DNA from: a virus
IMG/VR virus record: IMGVR_UViG_3300027365_000521
Span: 1 to 7,623 of that record
Length of the DNA: 7,623 nt
Direction: 5' to 3' (one strand)
Shown here: piece after piece, positions 5,851 to 7,008 of the stretch
Layout: the number at the start of each line of letters is the position of its first letter
Numbering within the stretch: position 1 is the first letter of the stretch
Notes under the pieces: model-generated
Databases searched by the model: none
What the model saw: the letters and a program-made list of their open reading frames with translations, nothing else
What the model was told of the DNA's origin: nothing
Translations under genes and position numbers: made by a program

Positions 5851-6111
5851 ATGATCAAGACCCTCTACAAGATTCCAGCGCCGGATTCCGTGGGCGCACA
5901 AATCGAGGTGTACGGCGAGCCGGAAAATGCCTGGTACGAATGGCGCATCATCGACGGCGGGCAAACCGTGCGGGACACCGGCACGGAAGGCCACTACGCA
6001 TTTCAGGGACGCCAGTACGGGCAGGCGGAGATTGCCCTACGTGATGCGCTCATGTTCGCCTCTGGCCTGCCCATCGACGGCGACACGCCGACCGATGCCG
6101 CAAACTGCTGA
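5851..6111 (+). CDS. Hypothetical protein, 86 aa
   Basis: ATG at 5851, with GGAG (5839-5842) 8 nt upstream. The product is MIKTLYKIPAPDSVGAQIEVYGEPENAWYEWRIIDGGQTVRDTGTEGHYAFQGRQYGQAEIALRDALMFASGLPIDGDTPTDAANC. Third positions are strongly G/C. The track start at 5755 would lie inside the promoter and operator region. Confidence 0.7.
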   Translation: MIKTLYKIPAPDSVGAQIEVYGEPENAWYEWRIIDGGQTVRDTGTEGHYAFQGRQYGQAEIALRDALMFASGLPIDGDTPTDAANC

Positions 6112-6116
6112 GGTCC

Positions 6117-6140
6117 TACCACTGAACGAGCAGCCGGCCA
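6117..6140 (+). repeat. 24-bp direct repeat, copy A (TACCACTGAACGAGCAGCCGGCCA)
   Basis: Matches 6524-6547 at 23 of 24 positions (A/G at position 9). Here it is intergenic, between the stop at 6111 and the Shine-Dalgarno at 6157. Confidence 0.9.
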
Positions 6141-6169
6141 CAAGGGCGAGGCAAACAAGGAGAGACAAC

Positions 6170-6427
6170 ATGGCAATCACCAAAATCATCATTACCAGCG
6201 GAAACCCTGAGATTGGCGCAAATGCTACCGAGCAGGATCAAGCCGAATGGCGTGATGCGGCAGCACAAGCGCTGGCAAAGGCATACCCGAACGCCGAAAT
6301 TGAAATCGGCCGCACCGACAGCATGAACAGCACACTGCGCCTGGAAGGCGATGACGAGGACGAAGAAGACAGGCGCGACAGCCTGGCATATCAAGAAGCC
6401 ATGCAGATCCTAGAACGTATGTGGTAA
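6170..6427 (+). CDS. Hypothetical strongly acidic protein, 85 aa
   Basis: ATG at 6170, with AAGGAG (6157-6162) 7 nt upstream. The product is MAITKIIITSGNPEIGANATEQDQAEWRDAAAQALAKAYPNAEIEIGRTDSMNSTLRLEGDDEDEEDRRDSLAYQEAMQILERMW. The 166-aa track ORF is the same frame read back through the previous gene. Confidence 0.7.
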   Translation: MAITKIIITSGNPEIGANATEQDQAEWRDAAAQALAKAYPNAEIEIGRTDSMNSTLRLEGDDEDEEDRRDSLAYQEAMQILERMW

Positions 6428-6489
6428 GGCGTGACGAAAGTGGCCACATCAAATCCCGCGCCACATGCGCGGGATGCGGAGGAAAAGAA

Positions 6490-7008
6490 ATGATCGACCC
6501 AGCAGACCGCCAGACCAAACCCGTACCACTGGACGAGCAGCCGGCCAAGCCGCGCCGTGGTCGACCAGCAACCGGCCAGGCGCTGAGCAACGCCGAGCGG
6601 CAACGGCTCTACCGTGAACGCCAGAAAGCGCAACGTAACGAAAAATCGGACAAGCACCCAGTGCCATACGAAGAAGTAGTTGCCATTGCCCAGGAGCTGG
6701 CGGAGCGCTGCAAAGCAGCAGAAAAGCGAGTTAGACAGCTGGAGAAGCTATTAACGCAACGTAACGAAAAGCCAAGCCGACTAAACGAAGGCATGCAGAA
6801 AATCATCAGGGACGTGCACGAGGTCGCAGACGCGATTAAGGGCAGCACCTGGCGGATACAGCGGAAAGCACGGGCTAACGGTAAGTGGGCGACATTGAAG
6901 GGTAGCTACTGGAACGAAGCGCAGGCAGAGGACGCACTAGCGGATTTGCCGAACAAAAAAGGCTCCTGGTGGCGAATTGTAGAGGTGAAATCAAAGGTCG
7001 AGGATTAA
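6490..7008 (+). CDS. Hypothetical protein, 172 aa: basic N-terminal region, coiled-coil middle, Trp-rich C-terminal domain (possible DNA-binding protein)
   Basis: ATG at 6490, with GGAGG (6478-6482) 7 nt upstream. The N-terminus is ...KPRRGRPATGQALSNAERQRLYRERQKAQRNEK..., an AT-hook-like RGRP followed by a basic helix. The centre is heptad-like (AQELAERCKAAEKRVRQLEKLL). The C-terminus is STWRIQRKARANGKWATLKGSYWNEAQAEDALADLPNKKGSWWRIVEV. Confidence 0.72.
   Translation: MIDPADRQTKPVPLDEQPAKPRRGRPATGQALSNAERQRLYRERQKAQRNEKSDKHPVPYEEVVAIAQELAERCKAAEKRVRQLEKLLTQRNEKPSRLNEGMQKIIRDVHEVADAIKGSTWRIQRKARANGKWATLKGSYWNEAQAEDALADLPNKKGSWWRIVEVKSKVED
6524..6547 (+). repeat. 24-bp direct repeat, copy B (TACCACTGGACGAGCAGCCGGCCA)
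   Basis: The partner of 6117-6140. Here it lies inside the 172-aa CDS and encodes (V)PLDEQPA. Confidence 0.9.
6629..6644 (+). repeat. 16-bp exact direct repeat, copy A (CGCAACGTAACGAAAA)
   Basis: Identical to 6755-6770 and 126 bp (42 codons) away, in frame. It encodes QRNEK and contains the ACGTAACG operator core. Confidence 0.9.
6755..6770 (+). repeat. 16-bp exact direct repeat, copy B (CGCAACGTAACGAAAA)
   Basis: Identical to 6629-6644. It encodes the second QRNEK in the 172-aa protein. Confidence 0.9.

Follow-up and report, generated by a model that had tools for sequence, protein, structure and literature searches.

Which genes make up the small region opposite the virion genes of a Pseudomonas-type filamentous phage, where did they come from and what might they do together? 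We addressed these questions for positions 1 to 7,623 of IMG/VR record IMGVR_UViG_3300027365_000521, a stretch of 7,623 nucleotides (nt) that we call the window. A first-pass annotation, made from the letters alone, had described positions 5851-7008 as an operator-controlled three-gene module of unknown function. We compared the proteins and DNA of this region with those of 30-odd related loci, which are given L-numbers below. The reading that we consider probable is that of a self-repressed cargo operon in a ~7.5-kb inovirus, similar to the operons formed by genes for anti-CRISPRs (acr) together with those termed anti-CRISPR-associated (aca). The region holds three open reading frames (ORFs).

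5851-6111, + strand: ORF1, 86 amino acids (aa), isoelectric point (pI) 4.3, a cargo gene common to IncQ-2 and small mobilisable plasmids
6170-6427, + strand: ORF2, 85 aa, a cargo gene
6490-7008, + strand: ORF3, 172 aa, pI 9.9, a conserved core gene

The same genes were called independently, with an offset of 7 nt, on the public metagenome contig L003 (ENA ERZ27245760, 7,637 bp), which is identical to the window. The window is a nearly complete genome of a circular, ~7.5-kb Pseudomonas-type inovirus. The features of inoviruses (Tubulavirales) were all found: a rolling-circle Rep with Pfam matches to the N- and C-terminal domains of G2P, a single-stranded DNA (ssDNA)-binding protein (Pfam PF17878, 8e-35), small coat proteins, a Zot-type ATPase and a small circle. 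The genes for Rep, the ssDNA-binding protein, the small coat-type proteins, the g3p-like and g6p-like proteins (the latter called as DUF5455) and Zot all lie on the minus strand, so the three ORFs do face the virion genes, as annotated.

Separate origins of the three genes

The three genes had been taken for a single module. Relatives carry ORF3 alone, ORF1 with ORF3 or ORF2 with ORF3, which argues against a common origin, and the region is almost certainly a patchwork whose cargo was captured separately. Conservation at this position across the related inoviruses is limited to ORF3. In L029, L043, L044, L048, L030, L023-27, L046 and L001 (phage 42-1), an operator-bearing promoter is followed directly by an ORF3-type gene; its start codon lies ~47 nt past the operator in these cargo-free relatives. 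L020 carries ORF1 and then ORF3, L021 has an ORF3 stub (codons 1-19) followed by ORF2 and ORF3, and L019 shares all three genes with the window. Unrelated small genes occupy the slot elsewhere, namely a gene of 55 aa in L022 and one of 83 aa in L031 and L047; the slot genes of L042 (102 aa) and L045 (about 111 aa) have C-termini that are similar by eye. The region is rich in cargo, which fits the remark in the first-pass annotation that inoviruses usually keep lysogeny control, superinfection exclusion or host-manipulating cargo in such places. Nucleotide comparison divided it as follows.

5365-5858: inovirus non-coding DNA
5847-6101: IncQ-2 plasmid DNA, 89.4% identical to pRAS3.2
6115-6140, + strand: recombination scar, a second copy of ORF3 codons ~12-19 (TACCACTGAACGAGCAGCCGGCCA), 96% identical to 6524-6547
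6133-6473: tailed-phage DNA, 85-87.5% identical to L032-L036
6487-7008: ORF3 segment

The breakpoints of this map are sharp, and copies of the ORF3 5' end lie at the junctions. The scar is also present in L019. The Shine-Dalgarno and start region of ORF1 (GGAGTAACCGAAATGATC) resembles that of ORF3 (GGAGGAAAAGAAATGATC), and the ORF1 junctions, read by eye, share short sequences with the first codons of ORF3 (GAAATGA on the left, CCGCCAG on the right). These junction sequences appear to fit illegitimate recombination into the 5' end of ORF3.

The annotation could recognise none of the three proteins. Searches of Pfam, NCBIfam, PHROGs and PADLOC indeed yielded nothing informative for ORF1 or ORF2, and only unnamed PHROGs and coiled-coil noise for ORF3; sequence and profile searches of the PDB gave no real matches for any of them. 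ORF1 and ORF2 nevertheless have clear relatives, whose gene contexts are informative. Against relatives in other kinds of element, the ratio of nonsynonymous to synonymous substitution rates (dN/dS) was 0.11-0.22 for the two genes (0.16 for ORF1 versus the plasmid copies, 0.11-0.22 for ORF2), and on this basis we judge that both are kept as coding genes under purifying selection.

An acr-aca1 locus as the very probable source of ORF2

The nucleotide matches of ORF2 (85-87.5% identity) lie in the tailed-phage contigs L032-L036, and its closer relatives are found on viral contigs of 35-50 kb that bear terminase and portal genes. Protein homologues occur in L032, L035 and L037 (68-89% identity), and a more distant member in L041. 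In all four loci the next gene encodes 73-74 aa and abuts or overlaps the stop codon of the ORF2 homologue; the product of this gene in L032 matches the solved Aca1 at E = 4e-30. The homologues are therefore small genes directly upstream of an aca regulator, the arrangement that defines acr-aca loci, of which the window keeps only an aca1 stub. In L035, the ORF2 homologue is the sole gene between aca1 and an upstream promoter-like sequence (TTGACG...CATAAT, read by eye). Two traces of such a locus flank ORF2 in the window.

6133-6169, + strand: leader and Shine-Dalgarno site imported with ORF2 from an acr-type locus (GCCACAAnGGCGAGGC...AAGGAGAGACA), also in L032, L035 and L037
6421-6473, + strand: aca1 remnant, the first ~17 codons, frameshifted by a 1-nt deletion (alignment against L035, L032 and L037)

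Identity to aca1 ends where the Shine-Dalgarno site of ORF3 begins. These comparisons make it very probable that ORF2 originates from the acr locus of a tailed phage.

Many anti-CRISPRs were found through their association with aca genes. By this association, ORF2 is most likely a candidate anti-CRISPR or other anti-defence protein, and we lean slightly towards its having anti-defence activity. The first-pass annotation had pointed in the same direction on the ground of acidity, which DNA-mimic anti-restriction and anti-defence proteins share; in mimics of the Ocr, ArdA and AcrIF2 type, an array of acidic surface residues copies the backbone of DNA. The protein is indeed strongly acidic (pI 4.16, net charge -11, with the run EGDDEDEEDRRD); the support comes from its context, with Aca1 next in four tailed-phage loci, and not from its charge, the acidic run being the least conserved segment across four clusters of the family. 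That family is tiny. A word-indexed search returned five close clusters, and an exhaustive HMMER search of 1.84 billion representatives returned four real ones; none of the clusters has a named or NCBI-sourced member. A distant member, P0247, lies in the unrelated inovirus L039, where operators and promoter are followed by an 86-aa gene, the ORF2-like gene and an ORF3-like gene. An earlier start of ORF2 at ATG 6094, adding the in-frame scar PLNEQPA, was rejected; it has no Shine-Dalgarno site, and the homologues start at MAITK or MTITK.

At 7897-7957 of L032, a promoter and operators of the inovirus type (GTTACGTTAC twice, 25 bp apart) were found within the acr-aca1 locus, directly before the ORF2 homologue. 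The leader there is closer to the inovirus copy than to the acr leader in its canonical form, which L035 has and which also occurs earlier in L032, a possible sign that the cassette moved back from an inovirus to a tailed phage.

ORF1 belongs to an IncQ-2 plasmid family

ORF1 is 89.4% identical to its counterpart in pRAS3.2 over 255 nt and likewise over 85 aa, an identity that places it in the small-protein family of the IncQ-2 backbone (WP_009873353). We detected 131 homologues, with 27 nearly invariant positions. The closest are hypothetical proteins encoded between a toxin-antitoxin pair and repA in IncQ-2 plasmids (pRAS3.1/pRAS3.2), and IncQ-2-type homologues occur in Aeromonas, Edwardsiella, Citrobacter, Klebsiella, Xanthomonas and large Pseudomonas plasmids. 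Other relatives stand directly after the gene for a winged helix-turn-helix (wHTH) protein on ~3-kb Mob_Pre plasmids, before a UvrD-like helicase gene in L051 and among small helix-turn-helix (HTH) genes on a 38-kb element. The wHTH protein is possibly a Rep; its Pfam matches are weak and of the RepL type. In the literature found, the pRAS3 homologue is called only a hypothetical gene, with no function reported.

The AlphaFold2 (AF2) model of ORF1 has four strands and one helix (predicted local distance difference test (pLDDT) 79.8, predicted template modelling score (pTM) 0.68). Fold searches with it found nothing significant in the PDB (best E 0.28) and only unnamed small phage proteins in BFVD (E 0.06-0.5); a match to AcrF1 was weak (E 0.32, template modelling score 0.35) and carries no value as evidence. 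The slot that ORF1 occupies here suggests anti-defence, and its neighbours on plasmids suggest an accessory role in replication. Judged by these contexts, anti-defence activity of ORF1 is possible and, in our estimate, rather unlikely. The acidity of the protein argues against DNA binding and hence against the idea of a repressor of the RSF1010 F/Cac type. A PasC-like third component of PemIK is also made unlikely, as IncQ-2 variants with ParE-type systems keep the ORF1 homologue, and the 3-kb plasmids and phages carry homologues without a toxin-antitoxin pair.

The 83-aa slot gene of the Aquipseudomonas alcaligenes prophage L031 (6654-6905; also in L047) shows an ORF1-like pattern, PD..IE..G..W..YEW...YG..E.AL. 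Its hhalign match to ORF1 is weak (E = 0.0013, with a probability of only 19%).

ORF3 as the likely repressor of its own promoter

The first-pass annotation had placed the genes behind a repressible promoter and had assumed a repressor encoded elsewhere. The covariation described below makes ORF3 itself the best candidate. The control elements of the region are these.

5555-5600, + strand: intrinsic terminator, hairpin of -32.6 kcal/mol (z = -5.9) followed by UUUUUU
5718-5729: O1, distal degenerate operator CGTTATGTAACG with one palindrome mismatch, ~58 bp further upstream
5776-5787: O2, perfect palindromic operator CGTTACGTAACG, ending 1 nt before the -35 box
5789-5817, + strand: sigma-70-type promoter read from the sequence, TTGCAT (5789-5794), 17-nt spacer, TATAAT (5812-5817)
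5801-5812: O3, operator CGTTACGTAACT within the promoter spacer, covering the first base of the -10 box
5817-5845, + strand: 5' leader hairpin, -13.3 kcal/mol (z = -4.4), whose 3' arm holds the ORF1 Shine-Dalgarno site
5839-5842, + strand: ORF1 Shine-Dalgarno site GGAG, 8 nt before ATG 5851
7 nt before ATG 6170, + strand: ORF2 Shine-Dalgarno site AAGGAG
6478-6482, + strand: ORF3 Shine-Dalgarno site GGAGG, 7 nt before ATG 6490
6629-6640: internal operator-like site 1, CGCAACGTAACG, encoding A-Q-R-N
6755-6766: internal operator-like site 2, CGCAACGTAACG, encoding T-Q-R-N, an exact 16-nt repeat of site 1

The predicted ribosome-binding sites of all three genes were thus confirmed, as was the picture of a co-oriented unit with palindromes at its promoter; a scan of the + strand found no terminator-like sites between ORF1, ORF2 and ORF3. 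The terminator at 5555-5600 is strong; it closes the upstream 64-aa gene (5167-5361) and insulates the promoter of the three genes. A generic promoter scan missed the promoter because its -35 box agrees at only 3/6 positions.

O1-O3 are three copies of the CGTTACGTAACG palindrome, one of them degenerate, and the GTTACGTAAC palindromes flank and overlap the TTGCAT-17-TATAAT promoter. The core ACGTAACG occurs six times in the window, compared with 0.16 expected copies (0/200 shuffles reach 6), and every copy falls within 5776-7286. O1 is found at the same relative position in L019 and L020. In most relatives, a pair of operators spaced 25 bp apart lies upstream of the ORF3-type gene, and an operator abuts or overlaps the -10 box wherever a promoter was read (all loci except L031, L045 and L047). 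The box is again TATAAT, abutting the operator, in L001, L023-27, L029, L030, L042-44, L046 and L048, and has the variant forms TTATAAT in L039 and CATAAT in L049. Arms resembling those of the 5' leader hairpin were seen in L044 and L039, and we infer a regulatory role for this hairpin.

Searches detected 277 homologues of ORF3, almost all without a name and most of them on contigs of 7-8 kb. Among 94 sequences, M1, G24, R25, P26, A31, A35, Q38, R42, K46 and W133 are invariant. Five of these residues (A31, A35, Q38, R42 and K46) share one face of the basic helix AERQRLYRERQKA (31-49), which AF2 models as a helix at 34-49. A proline-containing linker (50-59) separates this single basic helix from a long helix (60-93), inside which hydrophobic residues from V62 to L87 recur, by eye, in 3-4 spacing; a third helix and a small, variable beta-beta-beta-alpha-beta domain follow the coiled coil in the model. 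The RGRP motif looks AT-hook-like, with an R-G-R-P core, an R23 that is nearly invariant among the 94 sequences, and operators flanked by TTTAT and TATAAT. Conservation and modelling therefore agree with the RGRP motif, basic helix and coiled coil that had been noticed in the sequence, and the C-terminal part of the protein had been called Trp-rich (ORF3 contains five Trp). A likeness of the C terminus to YegP/DUF1508 was not recovered; it has no Pfam match, its PDB profile matches are to coiled coils only, and a Foldseek search of the PDB gave nothing for ORF3, with YegP absent from the top 50 matches, although confidence in this part of the AF2 model is low (pLDDT 64-72) and there may be distant kinship with the YegP fold. 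Neither ORF3 nor 93 relatives match an HTH family in Pfam.

The helix and the operator vary together in at least four specificity groups, with the sequence of O3 following the helix.

Window and group A: helix ALSNAERQR[L/R]YRE (SNAERQR-type), operator GTTACGTAAC or the variant GTTACGTTAC
Group B (L023-27, L046, L042): helix AMTPAEKQRAYRE / ALTPAQKQKAYRE (TPAEKQR / TPAQKQK-type), operator GTAACGTTAC
Phage 42-1 (L001): helix ALTDAERARRYRANKK (TDAERARRYRANKK), operator CGTGACGCGTCACG
L039, distant inovirus: helix ALTPAEKQKRYRERLRA (TPAEKQKRYRERLRA), operator GTAACGCGTTAC
L049, Thiocapsa locus: helix ALTAAERQKLYRE (TAAERQKLYRE), operator CGTTACGTGACG

L042 is a natural domain swap that combines a C-terminal domain of the window type with the helix and operators of group B, which maps specificity to the N-terminal helix of ORF3. 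Two neighbouring proteins were tried as operator-binding factors and rejected. The upstream 64-aa protein is 89-94% identical between groups A and B, and in L020 an XRE repressor takes its place, yet all three operators there match those of the window (region 95% identical). For the convergent 76-aa protein, the L021/L022 version (group A) and the L023/L025 version (group B) are 88-89% identical. Because its helix covaries with the operator and these two candidates do not, we judge it likely that ORF3 is an autorepressor of the promoter preceding the three genes.

ORF3-type genes carry one or two operator-like sites within their own coding sequence, and site 2 is retained in relatives at a spacing from site 1 of 126-183 nt. 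In the QR[N/Y][E/D] motifs encoded there, Gln is CAA in 23/23 cases (40% elsewhere in the genes) and Arg is CGT in 23/23 (13% elsewhere), with variable neighbouring codons. In group B, internal site 1 reads CAACGTTAC, an N-to-Y change that agrees with the half-site of the group-B operator. These comparisons show a constraint on the internal sites at the level of DNA, and we infer by analogy that they may be auxiliary operators. The lac and gal systems have internal operators.

A minus-strand gene of L006-L011 (about 2450-3088, 212 aa, weak DUF6753), in a mobilisation region of the pRAS3 type, contains GRQPSDAERQSLYRVR. Its likeness to the ORF3 basic helix (tblastn E 0.21) may be due to chance.

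Proposed mechanism and rival explanations

The sequence comparison shows that foreign genes entered the slot between promoter and ORF3 on two independent occasions, through recombination in or close to the ORF3 5' end. ORF1 came from the IncQ-2 plasmid gene pool, and ORF2 from a tailed-phage acr-aca1 operon, with its leader included and a dead aca1 stub left behind. Under the reading that we prefer, once the double-stranded replicative form appears, the strong promoter would fire, and ORF1, ORF2 and ORF3 would be made in an early burst. ORF3, presumably a dimeric DNA-binding protein with its RGRP motif, basic recognition helix, coiled coil and exchangeable C-terminal domain, would accumulate, bind the GTTACGTAAC palindromes at the -35 box, spacer and -10 box as well as the sites in its own coding sequence, and shut the promoter. 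ORF2 would serve as an anti-CRISPR or other anti-defence protein, and ORF1 as one more small, acidic protein with an accessory role on mobile elements, either anti-defence or replication-linked. A more far-reaching version seems doubtful to us, namely that ORF3 founds a new non-HTH family of Aca-like proteins marking an anti-defence slot, that ORF2 is the first functional anti-CRISPR of a filamentous phage and that the plasmid family of ORF1 is anti-defence as well.

Several points weigh against the preferred reading, all of whose functional statements come from comparison. Adjacency to aca1 is no proof of Acr activity, and ORF2 matches no known Acr in the PDB, among GenBank phages or in the Leon 2021 supplements. 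For ORF1 and ORF2 alike, no similarity to described Acrs was found in the PDB or in 50,697 GenBank phage records, and their peptides had no match in the literature or in the same supplements. A systematic test of ten inovirus candidates gave 0/10 with Acr activity (Roux et al. 2019, PMC6813254). The contexts of ORF1 (before repA, after the wHTH gene, before the UvrD-like helicase gene) favour replication modules equally. The ORF3 family matches no recognised DNA-binding domain, and its AF2 model is mediocre (pLDDT 67, pTM 0.27). Group A pairs one helix with both palindromic GTTACGTAAC and direct-repeat-like GTTACGTTAC sites, so the recognition rule is not simple, and the tailed-phage contig L032 bears ORF3-type operators with no ORF3 gene detected within the 16 kb examined. 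Finally, ORF3 is cargo-free in most relatives and must therefore also do something for the phage itself.

A first rival idea is that the region controls replication, with ORF3 as a RepB-type copy-number regulator, ORF1 as an accessory factor of replication or of a helicase, and ORF2 incidental. The relative of ORF3 in phage 42-1 was deposited as 'replication regulatory protein RepB', and homologues of ORF1 directly precede the RepA helicase gene in IncQ-2 plasmids, whatever toxin-antitoxin pair comes before, as well as following the possible Rep on 3-kb plasmids and preceding the UvrD-like helicase in L051. The name RepB, however, finds no support in Pfam RepB-RCR_reg (PF10723), which ORF3 does not match at E <= 1, none of 94 family members at E <= 0.01 and the phage 42-1 protein not at E <= 0.1. 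The rep gene and its promoter (3900-5136) have no ACGTAACG-type site nearby, and ORF1 is absent from most relatives and hence dispensable for the replication of this type of phage. We regard replication control as improbable. We give a similarly low standing to immunity or superinfection exclusion, in which ORF3 would be an immunity repressor and ORF1 and ORF2 exclusion factors that do not counter host defence. The operator specificity groups do resemble immunity groups. On the other hand, ORF2 occupies the aca1-linked acr position in tailed phages, where exclusion genes are not known; ORF1 is mainly a plasmid gene; and neither protein has apparent membrane or signal features (both sequences by eye, and the AF2 model of ORF1). 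In the study of ten inovirus hypothetical proteins that found no Acr, 2/10 excluded superinfection in Pseudomonas (PMC6813254), which speaks for exclusion.

Least probable of all, in our view, is that ORF2 inhibits no defence and modulates the DNA-binding protein encoded downstream (Aca1 or ORF3), as an acidic anti-repressor or operator mimic. In all contexts observed, a gene of its family does run up to or into the 5' end of a small gene for a DNA-binding protein, which is aca1 in L032, L035, L037 and L041 and ORF3-like in L039, and ORF2 is strongly acidic. Aca1 and ORF3 are, however, unrelated and their operators differ, so that one modulator for both is unlikely; 62 nt and the aca1 stub lie between ORF2 and ORF3 in the window; and, as noted, the acidic run is poorly conserved.

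Neighbouring elements of the genome

The circular form of the genome follows from a terminal overlap of 141 nt in L003, given by the assembler, which leaves a circle of ~7,496 bp; in the window, positions 1-127 recur at 7497-7623. The Zot gene (minus strand, Walker A motif GKLGSGKS) is divided by the window ends (about 740 to 1 and 7623 to 7312). A 249-aa ORF (65-814, + strand) lies opposite the Zot coding region, and this overlap makes it most likely that the ORF is antisense and does not code. Scans for Rfam families and tRNAs in the window gave no matches. Relatives in Pseudomonas genomes take the form of 7-kb episome-like contigs and prophages, and include Pseudomonas sp. LjRoot71, Aquipseudomonas alcaligenes and P. 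aeruginosa 'plasmids' of 6.5-7.6 kb. In L024 (IMG/VR 3300011202_000014), two related inovirus genomes stand in tandem with units 7,484 nt apart, which reflects either a concatemer assembly or a tandem prophage.

Further elements lie on either side of the three genes.

5045-5133: direct and inverted repeats rich in TGCATGCA, between the divergent rep gene and the 64-aa gene
5167-5361: 64-aa gene (PHROG 5642), with an N terminus, ATIRLTNAEQEAI, that is ribbon-helix-helix-like by eye
5361-5406: twin GC-rich hairpins CCCCGGgaatCCGGGG and GTGGGGGTGtaacagCACCCCCAC, -34.1 kcal/mol (z = -4.9)
6991-7221, minus strand: 76-aa gene (PHROG 13909), converging on ORF3 and overlapping its last 18 nt
7222-7292 (7227-7287 in a narrower delimitation): inverted repeat, arms of 24 nt, in the gap from the Zot stop to the start of the convergent 76-aa gene, -38.8 kcal/mol (z = -7.6)

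Together, the 64-aa gene and the TGCATGCA repeats may control rep as a circuit of their own; L020 and phage 42-1 have the gene of an XRE-type repressor in place of the 64-aa gene. L031, with a Rep of only 78% identity, matches the twin hairpins at 100% over 47 nt; they are conserved in L002 and L030 as well. They could be an ssDNA signal, for example a complementary-strand origin or a packaging signal. Nearly all related inoviruses examined have the 76-aa gene, among them silverpheasant213, in which no ORF3 match was found; since it overlaps the end of ORF3 convergently, the transcripts must collide. The inverted repeat carries operator-like ACGTTAC and ACGTAACGT motifs, and related motifs lie at the same relative place in L031, L044, L047 and L048. 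Its possible roles are those of a terminator, a packaging hairpin, an ssDNA signal or an additional site for ORF3.

Significance and comparison with known systems

Filamentous phages are targets of CRISPR-Cas. By sequence comparison, an inovirus has here captured a gene, its leader and an aca1 stub from the anti-CRISPR position of a tailed-phage operon. Having taken over from Aca1, ORF3 would be a new type of regulator, and its family could serve as a guilt-by-association anchor for finding new cargo or anti-defence genes on ssDNA phages and plasmids. The specificity of ORF3 appears to be readable from helix residues and half-sites, including those in its own codons, which would make it a model for the evolution of DNA recognition. 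That ORF1 is almost identical to a gene in the backbone of IncQ-2 resistance plasmids points directly to recent flow of genes between plasmids and filamentous phages, and flags a widespread, uncharacterised plasmid gene for functional study.

The nearest plasmid counterpart of ORF1 is the IncQ-2 protein WP_009873353 (pRAS3.1/pRAS3.2), with 89% identity and a nearly invariant family core. It has a 23-residue Ala/Lys-rich C-terminal tail that is absent from ORF1, and its context is a replicon, whereas that of ORF1 is a phage regulatory operon. ORF3 shares its family, at 37-45% identity, with 'RepB' of phage 42-1 (WWE31702.1) and with relatives in phages WX_Y and 5a-DAzarov. Like ORF3, the phage 42-1 protein has RGRP and a basic helix and is encoded after an operator-overlapped promoter; the operator sequence and the helix residues differ from those of ORF3, and phage 42-1 has no upstream cargo genes.

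Eukaryotic bZIP and bHLH-Zip proteins place a basic helix beside a coiled-coil dimeriser, and PAR-bZIP proteins recognise the site RTTAYGTAAY. ORF3 resembles them in its basic helix, coiled coil and palindromic TTACGTAA-type sites. We use this likeness as a working analogy and not as a claim of membership, since the proline-containing linker at 50-59 parts the basic helix of ORF3 from its coiled coil and the sequences show no relationship.

The system as a whole comes closest to the acr-aca operons of Pseudomonas phages, such as that of JBD30 with Aca1. The carrier differs, being an ssDNA filamentous phage, and the Acr activity of ORF2 is putative. ORF3 lacks a helix-turn-helix and has no relationship to Aca1, of whose gene only a stub is left here; moreover, it is a core gene that stands without cargo in most relatives. 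In acr-aca operons, as here, one or more small, variable and often acidic genes follow a strong promoter with inverted repeats. Repression of that promoter falls to the product of a conserved small gene at the 3' end, a DNA-binding protein, a part that ORF3 would play in the window. The inverted repeats of the window overlap its promoter, and the covariation of helix and operator suggests that ORF3 may bind them. The relatives of ORF2 sit in such loci themselves, directly before Aca1.

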